In this document: piece by piece, positions 5,158 to 44,331 of the stretch | Layout: every line of letters starts with the position of its first letter | How positions within the stretch are numbered: the first letter of the stretch is position 1 | Assembly: GCA_001772625.1 (NCBI GenBank) | Contig: MEVA01000016.1 | Coordinates: 67,159-131,158, forward strand | From: a candidate division WWE3 bacterium RIFCSPHIGHO2_01_FULL_42_13 | GTDB lineage: Bacteria; Patescibacteriota; WWE3; UBA101185; UBA10185 | Length of the DNA: 64,000 nt | Direction of reading: 5' to 3' | Notes under the pieces: model-generated | Told to the model about the DNA's origin: nothing | The model's database searches: none | Seen by the model: the letters and a program-made list of their open reading frames with translations, nothing else | Program-made: the position numbers and the translations under genes

Positions 5158-8100
5158 AAGCGCCTTTTTAAATATTCGAACACTGCTGTGGTGGAGATAG
5201 TTAGAAGGGTGATGGCAGTGACCACAGCAAAAATATAAAAGACTCTCTGAGAGGCAAATTCTATAATCAGAAAGTCAGCACCTTTAACATCCAGGGGATC
5301 TAAATACCAAGTGTTACTAAAAAAGTTTGATTTAAAATGTTTATCATTAGCGATCTCTTTCATTTTAAGCGTCTCGAAAGCACTTAAAATCCCCGTACTT
5401 CTTTCCCCTTCCCCGGCATAAAGCTTCCAGTGCGGACTGAAGGTTTGATTGAAAACCAGGGCAAATTTTCCGTCTCCATAGAAACGACCCAATTTGACTA
5501 GATATTTTGTGGGGGCAAGTTGTTTAAATACAACTTCTGGCAAACCCCCCGAAGGTTGCGGCATATTAAGTGATTTTAAAATAATGTTTGGGTTAAGTTG
5601 TCTTAACAGATTCATAGAAACAACGTCCACTTCTCCACCTCTAAAGGGATAGAGGTATATATCCAAAGATTCAACACCGTTTGACACCAAAACATCTGCC
5701 TCAAATATCTTTTCCTCCACGGTAGGTTCTAAAACACTTGATAACAAAACCCGCCCAGCACCATCTGTAGATTTCTGTACAAATAAGATGCCCATTCTGT
5801 CATTCGAGGTATATTTAAGCTCCGCCAGGTACTTACTTTGAAAATCAAGTGCATTATAAGAATACTTGATCATACTATTTAGATTCAAAGGACCTATCAG
5901 TTCCTCACTACGCTCAACTCCCACTCCCCTGGTAAACTCTTCGGGATTTACTACCTCGCGACTCTTGAGCGACACTGGCTCGTCCCGCATACCACTCAAG
6001 CTGAAAGTAACATTCCCAGAATCTAGATTATAGATATTTTTGGATGTCTCACTACCGCCATCAACATAAATATCGTACAAGTCTGACGGAAGTTCTCTTT
6101 GGTTAGATTCCACTATGAACATCTCGTATGAGCCAGGGATTTTAATATTAAAGTTGTAACAGTAATTTTTGCACCCTACTTCCTCCTGAATCTCTAAACT
6201 CTGAAATATCTCCAGTTGTTTGTTTAATTCACTTGTGATTTGCGGGGATAGGTCTAGTCCTTGGGTTTTTTCTAAAACCAACTTTATATTTTGAACGCCT
6301 AGAAAAGCGTACTTGGATACCTCCGAAGCATCTGCCCAGTTCGAAAACGCCTCACTATAATCTACAATTCCATTTAGATAATCCTTGTATAGCGTAGCTT
6401 TCTTACTGACTGGTAGATTATCGTACTTAAGTATCTCCGAGATTCTCTTAGAAGCAAGCCAAAGCTGTAATCCAGCCTTTGCAGCATTATCTCTCATTCC
6501 CAATAACTGCATTTTTTCCTTGAGTCTGACCAAATTATATAAAATGCTGTTGGGTTGAACATTAACCTCCGGTAGATAGGGCGTTTCTGCCAAGGTAGGT
6601 TCTCCCACAAACCCTCCAGGGGAAGAAAGATAAGTCTCACTGAAAGTCACAATGCCCCCCGCATCTTCAAGTAAAACAGTATTCGATCTGTCGTTTAAAA
6701 TTGCGGGTAGAAGAATGTTTTCCTTCATTGCAGTCACATCGACAAAATTATTTGCTGTGTATATAAACTGATTACTTCTCTCTTCACCAATACTATAAAA
6801 GTCCCATCGGCCAAAACTCGTTACAGGACCTAGCCCTAGTGTTGAGAGTTTTTCTTTAATAAACCCCGGTGAATCGTGATCACCGTAAAAATCGTATCTA
6901 AAATCATTTCTCTGCAGGATATGGTCTATGTTGTAGAAGTCAAAGACTTTTAACAGACCGTCGTGGTTGCCACTATATAGTGCCGAAACTATCGCACTGT
7001 AAATGTTGGTTATATACCCATCCAAAGCAAACCCCTCTCCATACGGAGAGTATAGTGTGGAACGGCCAAGAAACAGCCATGTTATATCTGTCGAGCTCCC
7101 ATACCCCCAGTCGTAAACACTTGTATGCTCTTCGGGAAGGAGAAGGATATTATAGTGCTCTTTGTTTAGCCCCTTTATATAATCTCGCGCCTCATACAAG
7201 TAGTCCGGGAAAGTGAGATGAAAGCCTAAATCAAATTTTCCATGATAACCAATATCCGACTCTTTGCCGGGAAACATAATACCAAACACAAAAAGATTAT
7301 TTAACAGTAGATAAAGCCCGATAAGCGTAGGTGCTATTATAAGTTTGGTAACTTTTAATTTTGCGTGTAAAAAGTTAACGGTGAAAAAAGTGCCAAAACC
7401 ACCTAAGACGGCATATGCCATTGTTGTAACTAAGCCAAACTTCTGCCATGGGGCCCTATGTATCCAAAAACCCGGCAAGTTATTAAAACTCCACTCAAAT
7501 ACACTATTAAACGGCGGGTGTGTTCCTTTTGAGAAGAATATAGTCATTAATGCAATAAGCCCAAAAGCAAGAATGGGCTTTTTATTCTCTTTGTTAACAT
7601 AAAGGGCCAGGAAGACTACAAGAAGAGCAAGAAAGCTTAAAATCAGAAACGCTGGGTTCTGATAAAAGTCTACGAACTCGGGGAAATAAAACTGGCCTCC
7701 CCAGCTGTCAAGCCAAACTACATCTCCAAACATTCTGAATATATTTAAATTGCTTGCCGTTTTGCTAGTCCACTCCAAAAGCTCTTTAACATTGTATGCT
7801 TCAACGCCAGCTTCACCACCTTGAATAAGACCAGACCTAAATATGTAATTTCCTAACGGAAAAATCCAATATGCTCCGCTGGCCGCAACCACAAAAGATA
7901 GGCAGACCAGTTTCTTTAGTTTGTGAAGGATAATCTTTTTATTTCTAAAAAGGTCAAACGACAAGTAAAACCCAATGTAAACACACATGCTCATCAGAAT
8001 CACATACATAACTGGGGGCTGCTTACCCAAGGGCCCACCAAGGATTGTCGCTACGGACAGAATCAAGAGATCTTTAGTTTTCAGGGAGTTTTTGTCAAGT

Positions 8101-8585
8101 ACCGAATGCAAAACCCCAAAAAGGACTGGGACGAACACAAGCGATGTTACAGAAACCTGTAGCCTAACCCACAAAAACATATTGTAAAAGTTCACCATGT
8201 AAATTAGAATCCCAAAGACTTTAATTAGAAATCTCTCCTTTTCTTCTCTCTCTGTAAAAACTTTTTCTAAAAGGTACGATATTGAAAATCCAGTTAAAGT
8301 AAACCAAATAACGAAAGTTAGTTTTTCTACCGTCACCACATCTTTAATAAACAGATTTAAAAGTCCTGAAGTTCCCACATAGGGAAGAGAGCTTATGTTT
8401 ATTGATCTTTCAGCGCCAGCTAGCTCTAAATCTTCCCACGCATAAAACCTCTCTTCAACACGTTCCCAAGGGAATGGGGGAAAGTTAACATCAGTTCCAG
8501 TAATTATCTGATTACCTCTAAACCACAGTAGGGGTATCAAACCCAAAATCAAAATGTATATTGTTATTGCGGCTTTATATTTCAT
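5154..8585 (-). CDS. Giant (1143 aa) GT-C-superfamily-like membrane protein, paralog of 1151..4840
   Basis: Track ORF. It is collinear with the 1229-aa protein: LWFRGNQIITGTDVNFP, LIYMVNFYNMFLWVRLQ, FSKGTHPPF, NLPGFWIHRAPWQKFG, DIGYHGKFDLGFH, HILQRNDFRYDFYGD, and a C-terminal TM (FAVVTAITLLTISTTAVFEYLKRRL). Nucleotide blocks encoding the conserved motifs are about 80% identical between the copies (e.g. around 3421-3500 versus 7201-7290). Confidence 0.55.
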   Translation of the reverse strand: MKYKAAITIYILILGLIPLLWFRGNQIITGTDVNFPPFPWERVEERFYAWEDLELAGAERSINISSLPYVGTSGLLNLFIKDVVTVEKLTFVIWFTLTGFSISYLLEKVFTEREEKERFLIKVFGILIYMVNFYNMFLWVRLQVSVTSLVFVPVLFGVLHSVLDKNSLKTKDLLILSVATILGGPLGKQPPVMYVILMSMCVYIGFYLSFDLFRNKKIILHKLKKLVCLSFVVAASGAYWIFPLGNYIFRSGLIQGGEAGVEAYNVKELLEWTSKTASNLNIFRMFGDVVWLDSWGGQFYFPEFVDFYQNPAFLILSFLALLVVFLALYVNKENKKPILAFGLIALMTIFFSKGTHPPFNSVFEWSFNNLPGFWIHRAPWQKFGLVTTMAYAVLGGFGTFFTVNFLHAKLKVTKLIIAPTLIGLYLLLNNLFVFGIMFPGKESDIGYHGKFDLGFHLTFPDYLYEARDYIKGLNKEHYNILLLPEEHTSVYDWGYGSSTDITWLFLGRSTLYSPYGEGFALDGYITNIYSAIVSALYSGNHDGLLKVFDFYNIDHILQRNDFRYDFYGDHDSPGFIKEKLSTLGLGPVTSFGRWDFYSIGEERSNQFIYTANNFVDVTAMKENILLPAILNDRSNTVLLEDAGGIVTFSETYLSSPGGFVGEPTLAETPYLPEVNVQPNSILYNLVRLKEKMQLLGMRDNAAKAGLQLWLASKRISEILKYDNLPVSKKATLYKDYLNGIVDYSEAFSNWADASEVSKYAFLGVQNIKLVLEKTQGLDLSPQITSELNKQLEIFQSLEIQEEVGCKNYCYNFNIKIPGSYEMFIVESNQRELPSDLYDIYVDGGSETSKNIYNLDSGNVTFSLSGMRDEPVSLKSREVVNPEEFTRGVGVERSEELIGPLNLNSMIKYSYNALDFQSKYLAELKYTSNDRMGILFVQKSTDGAGRVLLSSVLEPTVEEKIFEADVLVSNGVESLDIYLYPFRGGEVDVVSMNLLRQLNPNIILKSLNMPQPSGGLPEVVFKQLAPTKYLVKLGRFYGDGKFALVFNQTFSPHWKLYAGEGERSTGILSAFETLKMKEIANDKHFKSNFFSNTWYLDPLDVKGADFLIIEFASQRVFYIFAVVTAITLLTISTTAVFEYLKRRL

Positions 8586-14617: not shown

Positions 14618-15608
14618 TAGATTTTTGTATTCCGTCTTTTAATGAAACTGTGGGCTTGTAGTGAAGTAATCTTTTGGCCTTTTCACACTCATACACATTT
14701 ACATCCTTAGACATCCATTCTGAGGCCGTTCTGGAAAATGGAGGGAAGATACCTACTATCTTGCTGAGAAACTCTGTAACTACGCCTATGTAGTACCCCA
14801 CCTTAGGATGAAGCTTTAGGCGCGGCCTAGCTACCCTTAGCTCATCTGCCATCGTATTTAAAACATCCTTAATTTTATATGGCTGACCATCAGTTATATT
14901 AAATGTTTCGCCAACTGCATTTCCATCTTTCTCAGCGAGTAACAATGCCTGAACAACGTTATCTACGTACGCGAATTCCATTTTTGCTTCCCCGCTATCA
15001 AAAATTGGAAAAATCCCTAACTTTACAAACTTAAACATAATTAATCTAACTAAACACCTAGGCCCGTAAACTAAACATGGTCTTACAACTATTACTGGAA
15101 TTTTGTGTTTATAGTGGTAGTGTAAAGCAATTCTTTCGCCCTCTCTTTTGGTTTGACCGTATTTTAACCCATCGTATTGATATTCATCCTCACTTAGCGG
15201 GTGGCCGTCCGGACTTACTCCCAAAACAGAAACTGTGCTTACATGCACAAATTTCTTGACACCAACCGCCTTAGCAGCCTCCAGTATATTTTCGGTTCCT
15301 TTAACATTGACGTCATAGTATTTTTCATCCGTCACAGCCATGGGTCTGGAGATACCAGCTAGATGAAAAACGGTATCACACCCTTTTATGGCTTCTTTTA
15401 GGCTTTCTGCATCTCGTAAGTCACCATAAATAATCTCGGCACCCAACTCCTCTAACAACCGCTCGTTTTCTTTCTCTATGGGCTCAAGAGGCTCTTTCAA
15501 TGCTAATACTTTGACCTGTCTTTCCTGCTCTAGAAGCCTTTCAGTCAGGTGGCTACCAATAAATCCCGTACCTCCGGTCACCAAAATCTTTTCCATTATT
15601 GTTTCCAT
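14586..15608 (-). CDS. NAD-dependent epimerase/dehydratase (extended SDR, nucleotide-sugar modifying)
   Basis: 340 aa. VTGGTGFIGSHL Rossmann motif, STVSVLG, and catalytic YGQTK (YxxxK). Confidence 0.85.
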   Translation of the reverse strand: METIMEKILVTGGTGFIGSHLTERLLEQERQVKVLALKEPLEPIEKENERLLEELGAEIIYGDLRDAESLKEAIKGCDTVFHLAGISRPMAVTDEKYYDVNVKGTENILEAAKAVGVKKFVHVSTVSVLGVSPDGHPLSEDEYQYDGLKYGQTKREGERIALHYHYKHKIPVIVVRPCLVYGPRCLVRLIMFKFVKLGIFPIFDSGEAKMEFAYVDNVVQALLLAEKDGNAVGETFNITDGQPYKIKDVLNTMADELRVARPRLKLHPKVGYYIGVVTEFLSKIVGIFPPFSRTASEWMSKDVNVYECEKAKRLLHYKPTVSLKDGIQKSIDWYKSKGLL

Positions 15609-16633
15609 TCCTTTCTGCTTAATTCAGCGTTATTAAAAACCGAAACTAATGTCCCCAAGCTGTATTCCCACAACGTAACAAGACAAGCCAGAGGATGAAA
15701 AAACCACGCCGAATCTTTTTTTTTCATGTACCCCCGAATGGTTTGTATCACAAGCGGAAAAAAAGTCAGGCAGTAAAATACAAAAATTACAACTGCCTTA
15801 AAACTTCTGGATGACACATCAACTAAACGCCACTCATATTCCCTATTATCAACATTACGATGAAATAAGTAATCTCTAACTCTTCTTCTTTGCTTCCTCG
15901 CAAACTTTCCAATATCACGCTCACAGTAAGTGTGTATGATTCCATTCTTTACTTTAATAAATACTGCCGCACCACTTTTTTTTATATAAGAAGCCAAAAT
16001 ATCTATATCAAACAAGTAACTCCCTCTTAGATTTTCCTTCAAAAATTGTGTTCTAAAAACGGTACCGTTAGCACCAATTGTGGGAAGGTTCGTGGAGTTA
16101 AACTTTACTAGCAAATAACTTCCTTTATCTTGTTCGTCTCTTGCGACTTCCGTCCACTTTCCCGTAAGAAGGTTTACACGATCATAATTACCTAAAAAAT
16201 GAACAAACGGGTCATTCATTCCAATCAAAGCACAGTATCTTGTTATAAAACCATCTTTCTTTCTCCAAGTATATTTCCAGGGTTCACTACCTACAGCCGC
16301 GGGCTCTTTCATAAGTGGCCCAACCATTTCCTGCAACCAGGTATTGGTGGGCAAGATGTTATCGGAATCAACAAGGGCGATTAATTCCCCACCTGCCGCC
16401 CCCACACCTACGGCTTTGCCTGCTTCAGCTGTTTTTAGATCGTTTTTTACTATTTTTGCCCCAAATTTTGCTGCAATTGCTAAAGTGTCGTCGATAGAGC
16501 CCCCATCGGCAACAATTATCTCAACTTTCTCTTTTGGATAGTCTTGGGAATCAATTGACTCTAAACAAAACCGCAATACACTTGCGGCGTTAAGTGTAGG
16601 CACAACTATTGAAACTTTAGGTAAATTAATCAC
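15596..16633 (-). CDS. Glycosyltransferase family 2
   Basis: 345 aa. VSIVVPTLNAASVL...VEIIVADGGSIDDT. GTG start. Confidence 0.75.
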   Translation of the reverse strand: MINLPKVSIVVPTLNAASVLRFCLESIDSQDYPKEKVEIIVADGGSIDDTLAIAAKFGAKIVKNDLKTAEAGKAVGVGAAGGELIALVDSDNILPTNTWLQEMVGPLMKEPAAVGSEPWKYTWRKKDGFITRYCALIGMNDPFVHFLGNYDRVNLLTGKWTEVARDEQDKGSYLLVKFNSTNLPTIGANGTVFRTQFLKENLRGSYLFDIDILASYIKKSGAAVFIKVKNGIIHTYCERDIGKFARKQRRRVRDYLFHRNVDNREYEWRLVDVSSRSFKAVVIFVFYCLTFFPLVIQTIRGYMKKKDSAWFFHPLACLVTLWEYSLGTLVSVFNNAELSRKEWKQ

Positions 16634-16692
16634 GTTATTATTCTATCTTTTAGGCAGAGGGAAGGCTAGGAAGATATACCTAAATCTTGTTA

Positions 16693-16721
16693 AGCATGTT
16701 ACATTCTAGCCTGTTCTGGCA
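16693..16721 (-). promoter_or_regulatory. Weak sigma70-like promoter candidate for the minus-strand operon starting at 16633 (-10 TAGAAT, -35 TTTAAA, 17-nt spacer)
   Basis: The reverse complement of 16693..16698 is TAGAAT. The -35 is weak (TTTAAA). Confidence 0.25.
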
Positions 16722-16745
16722 GTAATTTAAACAAGTTAAAGAAGT

Positions 16746-16774
16746 TTGACTAAAAAGACAATGGCCTGTAGAAT
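16746..16774 (+). promoter_or_regulatory. Sigma70-like promoter: -35 TTGACT (16746..16751), 17-nt spacer, -10 TAGAAT (16769..16774)
   Basis: Read directly. It lies about 65 nt upstream of the GTG start at 16839, which is preceded by AAAGGAGAGG. Confidence 0.45.
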
Positions 16775-16838
16775 TCGATGGCTTATAGTAGTTTCGGCCT
16801 AATTTGCACGCAAACTAAACAAATCAAAAGGAGAGGTT

Positions 16839-17549
16839 GTGAGCGAAATTCTGGAGTTACCGGGCAGTAGTCTTATTGCCCGGCAGTTTAAAGAAATGCT
16901 GGAAAAGATCGTTTTGCCTACAATCGGGCGGAATAGCTTATCCAGCATTTGGGCGGAGCTGTACCAGCATGGAACCCATCCCCTCATATACCAAGTGGGT
17001 GGGAACTGGGAAGTTTGGGGGAACAAGGACAACAATGGGAATTCCCAGCTCCTGGCCCACATGATCCTCGTAGCTTCGGGCTGCGCAGTCGTCTCTAAAG
17101 AGATGGGGATTGATGCTAGGGATGTTACCCTCGCGGGGATGGTTCACGACGGTCATAAGAGGATGGATATCGAGGTTGGATCTGATGAAGGTCACACCGC
17201 CTCTTATAAGCGTCTGATCGATCTCTTTGGTGCACAAGTAGCCCAGATTGCTGAATATAGCGGCCACACCAGCATGCATAATGTGGTTGCCGAACTAGCC
17301 ATGCCTGGGCGGGATTGGGGAAAACTTCTCTTCTTCCTGATCGACGGTATTGCTGTGCACGATGGCTTCCAACCAGTCTCAGCCAAATGCGACTATCTGG
17401 ACTCGGTCGCCGCGGAAGGCAAAAAATACCAGTACAACTCGGATGGAATTAAAGAGTGGGGCCACCCGTTCTTTACATTCCAACGCTACTTGTCTGAAAC
17501 CATTCAGGCAATGGTTGCCCACAAGCTTGGGGTTTTTACTGCCGACTAA
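16839..17549 (+). CDS. Hypothetical protein with HD-domain-like metal-binding motifs (possible phosphohydrolase); compositionally foreign
   Basis: 236 aa. GTG start with strong SD (GGAGAGG). Spacing pattern H...HD...H...D (LLAHMIL, MVHDGHKR, HTSMH, AVHDG). GC is about 50% versus about 39% in flanking genes, and CTG/GCC-rich codon usage is unlike the neighbours. Confidence 0.45.
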   Translation: MSEILELPGSSLIARQFKEMLEKIVLPTIGRNSLSSIWAELYQHGTHPLIYQVGGNWEVWGNKDNNGNSQLLAHMILVASGCAVVSKEMGIDARDVTLAGMVHDGHKRMDIEVGSDEGHTASYKRLIDLFGAQVAQIAEYSGHTSMHNVVAELAMPGRDWGKLLFFLIDGIAVHDGFQPVSAKCDYLDSVAAEGKKYQYNSDGIKEWGHPFFTFQRYLSETIQAMVAHKLGVFTAD

Positions 17550-17615
17550 TCTTGCAAACTATATCGACATTCTGCTGGTAGAAGAGCTTGCAAAATAATA
17601 TCAGTACGGTTTACA

Positions 17616-17650
17616 AAAATGGGATCACCTAGTGATCCCATTTTCTTTTC
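17616..17650. terminator. Bidirectional rho-independent terminator: perfect 13-bp stem (AAAATGGGATCAC/GTGATCCCATTTT), 3-nt loop, T-tract
   Basis: Stem 17616..17628 and 17632..17644, loop CTA, followed by TTTTCTTTTCC. It lies between convergent genes 16839..17549 (+) and 17678..19915 (-). Confidence 0.6.
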
Positions 17651-17677
17651 CACTAACATTGCAGTGTAAGAAAAGTC

Positions 17678-19915
17678 CTATGCAGAAATCTCCATCTCAC
17701 CAAACATACGTTTGAAAATATTATCCCAGGTCATGTTATGCGAGAAGTTGTAAACGTTTTGCTCAATCTTTTTTCTTTCCTCACCGTCTCCCAGCAACTC
17801 GCTAACATTCATAACAAAAGAGTCTACATTGTATTCGACAACCCTACCTAAGTTTTGTTTCTTAATATCTTCCGATAATGGAATCACCGAAGTAGTAATT
17901 ATGGGCAATCCGCAGGACATATAATCTTTTGGCTTCGTGACATCTGAAAATCTCTTGTAGGTAGTTTTTGTATCCTCGTACGTAGCTAAACCAAGAGTGC
18001 TTTCTTTCAATAAACTAAGCCACCTCTCCCTATCCTCGGTGGTATCAATAAAGCCCATGAAATCAACGTTTTTGCTAACCCCAAGCTTATCGGCCATACT
18101 CTCCAGCTTCCCTTTAAGCTCCCCATCCCCGATTATTCTTAGCCTCAAGTCTGGAAACTTTTTTAAAAGCGCGGGCATTGATTCAATAATTAATTCCAAT
18201 CCAAACTCGGGCGTTAGTCCCCCGCTGTAAACTAAAATGTTATCTTTTCTTTCAATTTTCACCTCTCCTGCCTGCTTAACAACCCCTATAGGCACAGTGA
18301 TTTGATGCTTTTCTTTGGCCTTTTCACCAAGTTCCTGAATTCTTTGTCTGGCCATTCTATCCGAAACATTCAACGTGTAATCACTACCGAAAAAGGCTGC
18401 TCTGTCCATCCACACATAAACTTTGTTTAGAAGTCCTACCTTAAATCTATTTTCCATAACATAGTCGATAGTAAAGAAAGCAACTTTGCGAACCTTACCC
18501 AACTTCTTGAGTAGCAAGCCAAAGATAGCGTTAAACGAGTCTACCCCAATGTATAAATCAAACTTTTCTTTTGATGTTAAGAAATACCAAATGTTATAAA
18601 AGGCGTCCCTGAAGTAAAACAAGAACTCATTCCTAGGCAGTACCGGAGATTTCTTTTCTTTAACAAGCTTGCCCCTCTTAAATATGTTGAGATAAGAAAT
18701 AGCCTCACCTTTTGTGTAGAAAAATTTATGCGCAACGTAATAAAGCGTATCAATACCCTTTTTATTTAAGAAGTCACGAAGCTCCTGACCACTTCCCTTA
18801 AAGTGTTCATGCGTTACCACAGCAATTTTTTGACCTAAGATACTGTTCATTTTCTTGCTTTTTGTTTCCATCTCCCATCTGTCGCAAATTTCTTCGATTA
18901 TCTCATTTATACCATACGTGTACTTCCAATCCGGATAGTGCTTCTTAAATTTAGAGACATCCGATACATACCAGATATGATCGCCGGACCTGTTTTCATC
19001 CGAATATGAAATGTTACCTTTTTTGCCCAAATAAGTTTCTATTTTTTCAATAGCCTCCATCATTGAAACGTTTGAGTGCCTAGAGCCTCCAACGTTATAA
19101 ACCTCGCCCGGCCTAGGATTTTTATAAAACTCATGAAACATAGTTATTAGATCGTACGAGTGAATGTTGTCTCTCACCTGCTTACCCTTATAACCATAAA
19201 TGGTGTAGGGCCTGCCTTCGGCAATACATTTGGCTAAATAGGCCAAAAACCCATGTAATTCGGCACCGGAATGGCCCGGACCTGTTAAACATCCTCCCCT
19301 AAATACACCTGTTCTTAAGCCAAAATACTTACCGTATTCCTGCACCATCACATCAGCCGCTACTTTAGACACACCAAAAATACTATGCTTTGAGTCATCA
19401 AGGGACATCGTCTCATCAATACCTTCTTTATACTGATGGCTTGGATCAATCTCATAACGCTTGTCTAGTTCTATTAACGGGAGAAGGTTTGGTCTGTCAC
19501 CATAGACTTTATTTGTTGAAGTAAAAATAAAAACCGCTTCCGGAGAATATTTTCTGTATGCCTCAAGAATATTTAACGTGCCGGTAGCGTTTACGGAAAA
19601 GTCTGTTAGAGGTTCTCTGGCAGCCCAATCGTGAGATGGTTGCGCTGCTGTGTGGATGATTAAATCGAATACGTGGTTAGAAAAAATCTCATCAATTGCT
19701 TTTTCGTCCCGTATATCCACATCATAATGCTTGTAGTTTTTGTGTTTTTCTTCAAGCAACGCACGGCTCCAAGCTGTACTTGCTTCATCGCCAAAAAAAT
19801 ATCTTCTCATGTCGTTGTCTATTCCAACAACATCAAAACCCCGCTCCAAGAAATATCTTGAGGCTTCAGAGCCTATTAGACCTGCTGATCCGGTTATTAA
19901 TACGATTTTTGCCAT
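17678..19915 (-). CDS. Bifunctional fusion: N-terminal extended-SDR nucleotide-sugar epimerase/dehydratase-like domain + C-terminal GT4 glycosyltransferase domain
   Basis: 745 aa, a single ORF. N-terminus has GSAGLIGSE Rossmann, STNKVYGD, and FGVSK in place of the canonical YxxxK. C-terminal about 390 aa has GT-B features ([16 protein letters not shown]..., [12 protein letters not shown]). Confidence 0.7.
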
Positions 19916-22217: not shown

Positions 22218-23939
22218 TTACAATTTAATCTCAGCCTTAGCTTTAACTTCCGCTTCGGCACTTTCCTTAATATTTTGAGCAGCAATTTCGTCTTCCTTCT
22301 TTGGCAAAATGTGGGTGAACAAACTTTTCACAGCACTCACCCAAAACTTTGGGGACATGTAGTTAACTTTTGTTTGTGAAACGTCGAAATCTAACAAATG
22401 CCCAACGATCTTCCAAGCCGAATAAACCAAAAACTTTGCGTCGTCGTAGTTTCTAACACTTAGAAGTTTTCTGAGCATGTATTGAGGCGTAAAGAATGAA
22501 GAGTATAGTTCCTGGGTCAGCTCCATTAACTTCTCGCGTTCAAATGGAATTTTCATAACCGGCCCCCTCATATCAAAAGCGTTGTAATCGTCATCTGCAA
22601 CCATAAGCCAATCATTTTCTAGACATTCCTTGTACAGAGGCGTTCCGGGGTAAGGAATAACAATTGTTGCCTGCATGGTATCTACATAGCCTTTTTTAAA
22701 GAGCCTTTTGGCGATTGCGATGGTGTTTTTAGCCATTTCTTCTGTTTCCCAAGGATATCCAAGCATAATGGTTAAATGAGGCTCTAGACCCGCCTTTTTG
22801 GCCATTTTTACCCCCTCTTCTATCTGGTGGACCTTAATGCCTTTATCAAGTTTATCCAGTGTTTCCTGGTTTCCGGACTCCATTCCATACAAAATAAATC
22901 TAAAGTTGGCTTTACCCATAAGATCGTAATATTCCTGGGTTAAAGCATTAAGCCTCATGTTACAACCCATCACCACTTTTTTGTTGTACCCTGAGTCAAT
23001 TAAAAGCTGGCAGAATTTTTTCAAAGGGGGGCCAATAAACAAAGTTCCAGCGTCGTCGAAAATTTCTTTTACTCCGTAGTTATCTACAACGTGTTTTACT
23101 TCAGCAAAAAGTCTTTCGGGTGAAAATCTTCTGTAAGTTCCAATTGGGTTTATAGTGTGATCCCAAACACAAAATGTGCATCTGTTCCACCAGCAATCTT
23201 TTCCTGAATACATGTAAGTGGCCGGGGTATATTTGTAGTTTCCGTTGGCGTAAGCGTAAAGTTTCCATTTGGTTAAGTCTCTGTCTACAAATGGAAGTTC
23301 GTCCAAATTGTGTTTTTGCACTAGTGGGCCGGAAACCCAAAAAGCGTCTTTTTCGCCGGTTAAAATGTTATCTTCATATTTTATAAAATCTCCAAGCTTA
23401 ACTCTTTTATCTCCCGCTCTTCCCCAAATTCCACCCACCAGTTGCTCACCTTTGGTAATTGAATCGGCAAGTTCGGTAAGCATAAAATCGTAATCTCCTC
23501 CGGTCATTGCGTAATCAAGAGGAGAATTCATCATGCTTTCTTTTGGCGCAAAAGTTATTTGGTCTCCAACCCAAACCAAAAGCATTTCAGGAAATTTTTC
23601 CTTAAGATCTTTAATTACCTTCCAGTGGTACTTAACAACCGGGGACTTTGTTTCCACCATTAACATGTCGGGCTTTTCTTTTCTTAGCTGCTCGATCCAC
23701 TCATCGTAAGTCCACTCTTCCGCGATCCCATCAAGCCAAACAACATCGTAACCTTTAGCCTGAGCTTGAGATGCGGCATAAGCCGGAACCATTGGGTAAA
23801 TGTAAGTTTTGGCGTTAAAAAATTGAAACTGTCTGTTTTGAGATAAAAGAGGAACCCCCTTATTTGTCTGCATTGGGGGATACCCTACGGCAATTTTAAA
23901 TTTCTTTGTTTTAGTTTCTGTTTGTGCTTTTTTGGGCAT
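22218..23939 (-). CDS. B12-binding-domain radical SAM protein (class B rSAM, probable methyltransferase or other radical modifier)
   Basis: 573 aa. N-terminal Rossmann-like B12-binding-type region. A cysteine triad DCWWNRCTFC (CX4CX2C) sits in a MiaB/Elp3-like core. The C-terminal extension resembles the DUF4070 tail of class B rSAMs. Confidence 0.55.
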   Translation of the reverse strand: MPKKAQTETKTKKFKIAVGYPPMQTNKGVPLLSQNRQFQFFNAKTYIYPMVPAYAASQAQAKGYDVVWLDGIAEEWTYDEWIEQLRKEKPDMLMVETKSPVVKYHWKVIKDLKEKFPEMLLVWVGDQITFAPKESMMNSPLDYAMTGGDYDFMLTELADSITKGEQLVGGIWGRAGDKRVKLGDFIKYEDNILTGEKDAFWVSGPLVQKHNLDELPFVDRDLTKWKLYAYANGNYKYTPATYMYSGKDCWWNRCTFCVWDHTINPIGTYRRFSPERLFAEVKHVVDNYGVKEIFDDAGTLFIGPPLKKFCQLLIDSGYNKKVVMGCNMRLNALTQEYYDLMGKANFRFILYGMESGNQETLDKLDKGIKVHQIEEGVKMAKKAGLEPHLTIMLGYPWETEEMAKNTIAIAKRLFKKGYVDTMQATIVIPYPGTPLYKECLENDWLMVADDDYNAFDMRGPVMKIPFEREKLMELTQELYSSFFTPQYMLRKLLSVRNYDDAKFLVYSAWKIVGHLLDFDVSQTKVNYMSPKFWVSAVKSLFTHILPKKEDEIAAQNIKESAEAEVKAKAEIKL

Positions 23940-43611: not shown

Positions 43612-43640
43612 TAGGCATTTTTGAAGAAATGTCCTATAAT
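43612..43640 (+). promoter_or_regulatory. Sigma70-like promoter candidate: -35 TAGGCA (43612..43617), 17-nt spacer, perfect -10 TATAAT (43635..43640)
   Basis: Read directly. It is about 42 nt upstream of the ATG at 43683, which has AAGGAGGG with a 7-nt spacer. Confidence 0.35.
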
Positions 43641-43682
43641 GCGGTCAGAAACACGGCACAATAATCGCCTAAGGAGGGTGAC

Positions 43683-44285
43683 ATGTACCGACGTATAAAA
43701 AGGGGTCTGGATCTCTTAGTGGCGATCCTGCTGTATGCTCTTTGGACACCTCTAAGCATTGTTCTGCTGAGGATTCCGATCAGACTTGGATCGTACGGAC
43801 ACTCCCTGCTGAAGCAAGAGCGTGTGGGTTTGAACGGTCAGAAATTCACGATCTTCAAACTCCGGACAATGTATTCCAATGCCAACGAGATAGGGAGGGC
43901 AAACGGAATACGTTCCCACGCAAAGCCCAAAGGTGATGATCCGAGAGTCACTCCGTTAGGTAAATTCCTGCGGAAAACCAGCATCGATGAGTTTCCCCAA
44001 CTGTTAAATATCATCAGGGGGGAAATGAGTTTTATCGGCCCACGTCCACCGCAACCGCACGAAATGAAAGAGTGGCGAGCCATGTATGGAAATCTTGCCA
44101 CAAAAAGGCTTGAGGTCCTTCCTGGTCTAACGGGTTGGGCGCAGGTCAACGGCAGGGACGCTCTTACACCAAAGCAACGATTGGAGCACGACGCATACTA
44201 TGTCGAAAACCAATCCTTCTGGTTGGACTTGATGATTCTTATCAAGACTATTCCAACGTTGTTCAAGTGGGAGAGTGCAAACTAA
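43683..44285 (+). CDS. Polyprenyl-phosphate sugar-1-phosphate transferase (PglC/WbaP C-terminal-domain type initiating phosphoglycosyltransferase); compositionally foreign
   Basis: 200 aa. Single N-terminal re-entrant helix, then KFTIFKLRTM, DEFPQLLNIIRGEMSFIGPRP and PGLTGWAQV, the hallmark bacterial sugar transferase motifs. GC is about 47-50% with CTG-rich codons. Confidence 0.8.
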   Translation: MYRRIKRGLDLLVAILLYALWTPLSIVLLRIPIRLGSYGHSLLKQERVGLNGQKFTIFKLRTMYSNANEIGRANGIRSHAKPKGDDPRVTPLGKFLRKTSIDEFPQLLNIIRGEMSFIGPRPPQPHEMKEWRAMYGNLATKRLEVLPGLTGWAQVNGRDALTPKQRLEHDAYYVENQSFWLDLMILIKTIPTLFKWESAN

Positions 44286-44323
44286 AAAGGCTCAATGGGA
44301 AACCAACGAGCCTTTAGTTTTTG
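44286..44323. terminator. Terminator-like hairpin (8-bp stem AAAGGCTC/GAGCCTTT, 14-nt loop) followed by a T-tract, between convergent genes
   Basis: Stem 44286..44293 and 44308..44315, then AGTTTTTG. The loop is long, so confidence is moderate. Confidence 0.4.
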
Positions 44324-44331
44324 TGCTGAAA

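Follow-up and report, generated by a model that had tools for sequence, protein, structure and literature searches.

A GC-rich, divergent HD-superfamily gene in a glycan-biosynthesis locus of a candidate division WWE3 bacterium

The metal-dependent phosphohydrolases with an HD domain form a superfamily that was reportedly delineated by Aravind and Koonin in 1998, and horizontally acquired single-gene cassettes occur in mosaic polysaccharide loci such as those for O-antigen and capsule. Both bear on a gene of candidate division WWE3 bacterium RIFCSPHIGHO2_01_FULL_42_13 that lies in a stretch of 64,000 nucleotides (nt) from MEVA01000016.1, here called the window (the whole stretch). The gene is flanked by one for a family-2 glycosyltransferase (GT2) and one for a fusion of a sugar epimerase with a family-1 glycosyltransferase (epimerase-GT1 fusion). 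Its product belongs to the HD superfamily by motif and fold and is placed outside every curated subfamily; the gene itself has the typical make-up of a single-gene cassette acquired horizontally into a mosaic polysaccharide locus. We consider it fairly probable that the protein is a functional HD hydrolase, that its gene was acquired horizontally as a cassette, and that it serves as an accessory enzyme of the glycan pathway to which the fusion gene belongs.

Mononuclear HD enzymes carry their metal-binding residues in the order H...HD...D and dinuclear ones in the order H...HD...H...H...D (PMC8177086). Relatives of the window protein were sought by an exhaustive HMMER scan over 1.84 billion cluster representatives, which gave 16 matches, including nine full-length proteins of 243-259 amino acids (aa; E 1e-31 to 1e-17), a 193-aa protein (E 2e-21), one more distant full-length protein and two shorter ones. 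With about 13 relatives among the 1.84 billion representatives the family is very rare; the nearest relative of the window protein is only about 40% identical, and every member with an organism name is from Patescibacteria. A word-indexed protein search returned only identical copies or members already found, and a scan of viral and metagenome contigs for the family gave no relatives. Across an alignment of 13 sequences H74 and H103 are invariant, and D104, K107 and W60-G61 nearly so; a closer subset of seven, in which conservation is stricter, also keeps S141, H143 and D169 invariant and shares a C-terminal block Y-x-Y-N...G...FTFQ-x-YL, which reads FTFQRYL in the window protein. The H...HD...H...D pattern picked out by a first-pass annotation of this DNA recurs throughout the family as H74, H103, D104, H143 and D169. 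In the most divergent member, P0133 (positions 156-905 of locus L006), the HD pair is replaced by HN and H143 by Y, so that it may be catalytically inactive.

An AlphaFold2 model built with the 13-sequence alignment has a mean predicted local distance difference test score (pLDDT) of 93 and a predicted template modelling (TM) score of 0.90; the single-sequence model was unusable (pLDDT 39). The modelled protein is compact and mostly helical, with one beta-hairpin at residues 50-59. When it was compared with the PDB by Foldseek, the best 20 matches were all HD-domain hydrolases (probability up to 0.98), SP1746, SAG1661, YqeK, a small alarmone hydrolase, YpgQ, Rel and PgpH among them, and a viral structure library gave the same outcome. 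In a profile comparison, the H and HD of a YfbR-like HD protein line up with H74 and H103-D104. Two results tell against the assignment: the Foldseek matches are weak if judged by their absolute values (E about 0.07, TM 0.35-0.48, identity 10-17%), and the window protein has no Pfam match even at E up to 10. The metal-binding residues and the all-alpha fold of the Pfam HD family (PF01966) are thus found without a score at its gathering threshold; sub-threshold matches to PF01966 occur in 8 of the 13 members, at best with E = 4e-4. NCBIfam matches of the window protein were confined to the H...HD region of the RNase Y and NadD-YqeK models, at 11-13 bits, and a sequence-profile search of the PDB gave only a 13-bit match to an HD-GYP structure (4mcw). 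Pfam, NCBIfam, PADLOC and PHROGs profiles run on the 13 members yielded just generic sub-threshold HD-motif matches. Among the PADLOC defence profiles none matches the window protein, and its relatives have weak matches to Cas3 models that are insignificant over the whole protein and are taken to reflect the shared HD motif.

The absence of a Pfam match, together with the outcome of the word-indexed search, would fit a chance open frame in a GC-rich spacer, the circumstance named in the first-pass annotation as fatal to its proposal. This is ruled out by full-length homologues from several further genomes and from metagenome assemblies, the conserved catalytic motif, the pLDDT of 93, a coding-type GC content that is higher at the first than at the second codon position, and an N-terminus (LELPG) that aligns with the homologues from the GTG start; we regard its likelihood as negligible. 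The open reading frame (ORF) is a true gene of the HD superfamily, because it has full-length homologues, a conserved motif, a model of high pLDDT and structural matches that are all to HD proteins; the earlier description of an HD phosphohydrolase-like protein stands on that motif and on the modelled fold. The database record of the identical protein (locus A2886_00905) calls it a hypothetical protein of candidate division WWE3, encoded on a contig of 171 kb, and UniRef labels it HD domain-containing protein.

Like other members of the superfamily, the window protein has an all-helical fold and keeps the order H...HD...D, with these residues in helices, and its weak matches to hidden Markov models centre on the H...HD region. 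It differs in falling under every curated threshold, in an extra N-terminus of about 65 residues, made of two helices and the beta-hairpin and ending in the (nearly) invariant W-G, and in the family's own C-terminal motif, RYPYN...YGVPYFTFQRYL. HD phosphatases have an arginine before the motif histidines (PMC8177086); the window family lacks it and has K107-R108 after the HD pair instead.

The closest structural matches belong to the YqeK/SP1746/SAG1661/BH1327 group of dinuclear enzymes that hydrolyse diadenosine tetraphosphate (Ap4A) and other nucleotides (8jk9, 8jkp, 2ogi, 8wmy and 2o08). The window protein is of similar size and weakly matches PRK07152, a NadD-YqeK fusion model, over its HD half, in a partial match of 11.8 bits against a cut-off of 315. 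YqeK uses six ligands in the order H...HD...H...H...D (PMC8177086), whereas the window family has a single conserved histidine (H143) between the HD pair and D169, and we reject a YqeK-type six-ligand enzyme on this ground. TM scores of 0.35-0.42, identities of 13-17% and a context of glycan genes rather than nadD also set it apart from this group. The small alarmone hydrolase and the hydrolase domain of Rel/SpoT, which are mononuclear manganese enzymes, likewise rank high among the structural matches and include the best target-normalised TM, 0.48 (6yvc); the former is a single-domain soluble protein like ours. Identity is only 10-12%, no member of the window family matches Rel/SpoT-type HD models, and judging from the alignment the alarmone hydrolases lack both the conserved H143 and the N- and C-terminal additions.

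The composition and codon usage of the gene are foreign to its host. At 51.2%, its GC content lies well over the window mean of 40.1%, and no 711-bp segment has a higher one (z = 4.3-4.4); it is 58/37/58% at codon positions 1/2/3. GC content at the third position (GC3; 58%) is 6 standard deviations over the mean of 47 other window ORFs (38.7%), and the codon adaptation index (CAI), built from the window's own genes, is 3.2 standard deviations under their mean (z = -3.2). The relative synonymous codon usage (RSCU) of the gene correlates with that of the window genes at r = -0.10, as compared with 0.46-0.80 (mean 0.68) for 26 other window genes of similar size. CTG and CTC make up 13 of its 21 leucine codons (15% in the window) and GCC 10 of its 20 alanine codons (25% in the window). 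The GC profile is therefore not uniform, and the foreign GC and CTG/GCC-rich codons reported in the first-pass annotation hold up; its figure of about 50% GC for the interval 16634-17677 fits the coding sequence (about 51%) and not the interval as a whole (46%). The flanking spacers have only 33-43% GC, and the rise is limited to the coding sequence.

We propose that this composition stems from horizontal acquisition from a GC-richer, unsampled donor, which would probably be another Patescibacterium with a similar glycan locus. An insertion is supported by the comparison with 80 metagenome loci that carry relatives of the window GT2 (29-63% identity), fetched with 6-kb flanks and searched for the HD family by tblastn: it is present in 0 of 80. 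Of the 56 with at least 1.5 kb upstream of GT2, about 25 have a B12-binding/radical S-adenosylmethionine (radical-SAM) gene that abuts the GT2 start on the same strand, and in about a dozen further loci such a gene lies 1-2.5 kb upstream, one gene intervening. Directly upstream of the nearest GT2 relatives there is a radical-SAM gene (L089, 62%; L090, 58%) or a 610-aa ORF (L082, 63%), and no HD gene. The radical-SAM to GT2 pair is widely conserved; its adjacency can be seen, among others, in L026, L027, L030, L035, L047, L049, L073, L074 and L089, with the junction near position 6000. The corresponding genes of the window (22218-23939 and 15596-16633) are set apart by three methyltransferase genes, the fusion gene and the HD cassette.

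A second case comes from a Saccharimonadales contig (L015, DATIHK010000030), whose GT2 is 61% identical to that of the window and has the HD family divergently upstream, here as tandem paralogues (6655-7386, 243 aa; 7400-8176, 258 aa) that are 32% identical to each other. The pair forms a 1.5-kb island of 48-49% GC in a contig of 33% GC, with a GC3 of 51% and 47% where the neighbours average 25%. It fits precisely into the junction of the radical-SAM gene and GT2, but on the opposite strand, and has its own predicted -10 box, ribosome-binding sites and terminator hairpin. On the sequence evidence, this is how a cassette set down in a conserved junction of two genes would look. Other copies are host-like, with a GC3 of 25% against about 33-35% for the neighbours in L005 and of 31% against 34% in L010, so high GC is not intrinsic to the family; the copies on two short contigs (L013 and L014), whose neighbours could not be scored, also have a low GC3 (26% and 34%).

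Several results weigh against horizontal import. No donor was found, and no relative exceeds about 40% identity; no integrase, no transposase, no tRNA gene in the window and no flanking direct repeats were detected, and direct or inverted repeats that could be insertion scars are no larger than expected by chance. In five scorable loci the GC of the HD gene is above that of its neighbours: the window, L015, L007, L006 and L012 (the last with one neighbour). Moreover, the window and L015 share the divergent arrangement of GT2 and HD genes, with GT2s that are 61% identical and of host-like GC, which calls either for two independent insertion or replacement events at one spot or for a force that maintains high GC. 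The last two points would suit an old resident whose high GC3 is kept by selection on codons or mRNA, or by GC-biased gene conversion at a recombination hotspot, as would the persistence of the linkage to the fusion gene over fusion identities of 43-70%. Such a resident is difficult to reconcile with the copies at or under host GC3 in L005 and L010 and the low GC3 in L013 and L014, with an RSCU correlation that is near zero and not merely shifted, with the 0 of 80 related GT2 loci, and with the L015 pair splitting a junction whose genes are directly adjacent in many related loci; we think it unlikely.

The favoured reading, a horizontally inserted cassette, thus rests on deviant composition and on patchy presence: around the fusion gene the HD family occurs in L005, L007 and L015 and is lacking from L004 within 9.4 kb. 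The first-pass annotation had argued for horizontal acquisition into the glycan locus, and this part of it fares well as to composition and the related loci and less well as to donor, mobility genes and repeats; the homology search that it called for placed the family in the HD superfamily and reached a best identity of about 40%. Transfer as the cause of the composition is what we infer from these features. The cassette resembles those of O-antigen and capsule loci in its atypical GC and codons, its opposite orientation, its own expression signals and its presence or absence among related loci. In orientation the gene is the sole plus-strand ORF of 150 aa or more in the stretch from 1151 to 21417, in accord with its description as the only plus-strand gene in a 20-kb minus-strand stretch. 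It differs from those cassettes in that its junctions lack remnants of insertion sequences, integrase genes and repeats, and in that its cargo is an HD hydrolase and not a glycosyltransferase or modifying enzyme. The GT2s of L005 and L007 were considered as orthologues of the window GT2 and rejected, the identity being only 19%.

In four independent loci (the window, L005, L007 and L015) the HD-family gene either adjoins an epimerase-GT1 fusion gene or is separated from it by a single gene. The relative gene arrangements differ among the four, and the fusion proteins are 43-63% identical to that of the window. L006, L007, L010, L012 and L015 were fetched through HD-family proteins, L004 and L005 through homologues of the fusion. 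In L005 (fusion 63% identical) the HD-family gene is directly upstream of the fusion gene and was seen only by tblastn, with 51% identity to P0124; in L004 (fusion 70% identical) no HD-family gene was detected within 9.4 kb. The gene order in L007 is fusion, GT1, HD, FkbM-type methyltransferase, DUF268, YfhO, GT2 and AftD-like GT-C glycosyltransferase, and that in L015 is fusion, GT2, the two HD genes and radical SAM. An FkbM-type methyltransferase gene also adjoins the HD gene in L012. That two very rare families are found within one gene of each other in four independent loci indicates a functional link between them, as far as gene order can tell. The spacer upstream of the HD gene in L007 (5501-6062) is unusually long (562 nt) and folds much better than shuffled controls (z = -3.9); it holds a GGGGTTACC...GGTAACCCC hairpin and a promoter match TTGCAA-17-TATAAT, and matches no Rfam family.

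The first-pass annotation had left room for unrelated cargo, by which the gene would encode a stand-alone hydrolase of nucleotide signals or of housekeeping type (of the small alarmone or Ap4A kind), or a defence protein, in a recombination-prone glycan locus. In favour of this, the cassette is self-contained and runs counter to the operon, and the structural neighbours of the protein include a small alarmone hydrolase, YqeK and Rel. Two contexts outside glycan loci, which count against a dedicated glycan role, point the same way: in L010 the HD gene lies among housekeeping genes (NusB, RNase III, S16 and RsmD), and in L006 it lies beside genes for a NUDIX hydrolase and a YfbR-like HD protein, which suggests nucleotide metabolism. 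The recurrence within one gene of the same rare fusion in four independent loci speaks against unrelated cargo, as do the FkbM-type methyltransferase genes beside the HD gene in L007 and L012, the merely generic HD-motif matches from PADLOC and PHROGs, and the lack of relatives in the viral contigs. We therefore disfavour this option and judge it distinctly unlikely.

We propose that the protein is a soluble metal-dependent HD hydrolase of a very rare, unclassified subfamily, encoded on a monocistronic cassette, complete with a promoter, ribosome-binding site and terminator of its own, that would have been inserted counter to a long glycan-biosynthesis operon. It would be transcribed from its own promoter up to a hairpin shared with the fusion gene. 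The HD family appears to travel with the same set of genes, above all the epimerase-GT1 fusion, and the window protein is probably catalytically active. As an accessory enzyme of the pathway it would cleave a phosphoester or phosphoanhydride bond, most probably of a nucleotide-type molecule, since its structural neighbours by Foldseek hydrolyse nucleotides (PMC8177086). The likeliest substrates would be a nucleoside diphosphate or triphosphate (NDP/NTP) by-product, an NDP-sugar or a related nucleotide intermediate, because the family is linked to a fusion of an NDP-sugar epimerase and a glycosyltransferase. Of the two substrates suggested previously, nucleotide-sugar intermediates remain candidates; polyprenyl-pyrophosphate seems less likely, as the modelled protein is compact and helical, its structural neighbours all hydrolyse soluble nucleotides, and none of its structural matches is to a membrane phosphatase.

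The genomes of Patescibacteria are tiny, and these bacteria rely on their cell surface for host attachment; to our knowledge their glycan pathways are almost uncharacterised. A rare HD hydrolase that recurs with one glycan gene set and moves between lineages as a ready-to-express cassette would give a handle on an unassigned pathway step, and would show how the glycan loci of Patescibacteria are remodelled. More tentatively, and with some doubt, we suggest an undescribed HD subfamily restricted to Patescibacteria, defined by H...HD...H...D, the N-terminal hairpin module and the C-terminal FTFQRYL, that would have a dedicated role in a surface-glycan pathway built on the epimerase-GT1 fusion, the radical-SAM enzyme and GT2, one possibility being hydrolysis of a nucleotide-linked sugar intermediate or by-product, and that would spread from lineage to lineage as an autonomous GC-rich cassette. 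Otherwise this is an ordinary example of how mosaic polysaccharide loci evolve and of how hypothetical proteins come to be placed in a known superfamily.

The expression signals around the HD gene (Table 1) agree with those claimed previously, namely a near-consensus promoter, a strong Shine-Dalgarno site with a GTG start, and a bidirectional terminator with a perfect stem. The promoter-like sequence is the best match in the 3.5 kb from 15500 to 19000 and one of only 11 that match at 10 or more of 12 positions on both strands of the window (128 kb); the chance of a match of equal quality within 100 nt before a given start is about 1%. In the Shine-Dalgarno site GGAGAGG (16830-16836) ends 2 nt before the GTG (16839), and its GGAG core lies 5 nt before it. 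The hairpin sits between the convergent HD and fusion genes, in a 136-nt spacer that folds on both strands (z = -2.9 and -4.3), and is probably a bidirectional intrinsic terminator, although it is absent from the list of a consensus terminator scan. By their sequence, the promoter and the terminator of the HD gene are likely to be functional. An Rfam scan of the window gave no match at gathering level; a sub-threshold match to sraA at 17609-17707 on the minus strand overlaps the hairpin (E = 0.05; it scores 30 bits where gathering level is 56) and is taken as chance.

Table 1. Coordinates of the HD-superfamily gene, its predicted expression signals and its two flanking genes in the window
Feature	Position	Strand	Details
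Divergent HD-superfamily coding sequence	16839..17549	+	236 aa/codons; GTG start, TAA stop; OGC47190.1
Sigma-70-like promoter match TTGACT-17 nt-TAGAAT	16746..16774	+	Consensus match; 64 nt before the start codon
Shine-Dalgarno site AAAGGAGAGG	16827..16836	+	Read from the sequence
Hairpin, perfect 13-bp stem, 3-nt loop	17616..17644	both	Arms 17616-17628 and 17632-17644; T-runs on both strands
Family-2 glycosyltransferase (GT2), divergent neighbour	15596..16633	-	345 aa; Pfam PF00535
Epimerase-GT1 fusion, convergent neighbour	17678..19915	-	745 aa; Pfam: NAD-dependent sugar epimerase/dehydratase and family-1 glycosyltransferase

The gene and its context are found in identical form on three JGI groundwater contigs. 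Further neighbours in the window encode several SAM methyltransferases, additional glycosyltransferases and the B12-binding radical-SAM enzyme (minus strand). Homologues of the fusion protein are from Patescibacteria (WWE3, Saccharimonadales, Beckwithbacteria, Woesebacteria and Daviesbacteria). Its N-terminal epimerase/dehydratase domain, for which the JGI name is CDP-paratose 2-epimerase, is 60-70% identical across many Patescibacteria, and the C-terminal partner of that domain varies: GT1 in the window gene, GT2 plus a methyltransferase in proteins of about 815 aa, and a WecB/TagA/CpsF-type domain in proteins of about 650 aa.

The window holds a second foreign-looking plus-strand cassette amid minus-strand genes, at 43612-44325. 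Its ORF (43683-44285, 200 aa) has 48.8% GC and a GC3 of 55%; its CAI is lower than that of any other ORF scored in the window, and its RSCU correlates with that of host genes at r = -0.06. Being an unrelated gene whose codon usage is uncorrelated with that of the HD gene, it was rejected as an HD paralogue or a gene from the same donor. The product is a priming sugar transferase of the Bac_transf family (PF02397), and the ORF is preceded by a promoter match (TAGGCA-17-TATAAT, at 43612) and a ribosome-binding site AAGGAGG and followed by a hairpin.

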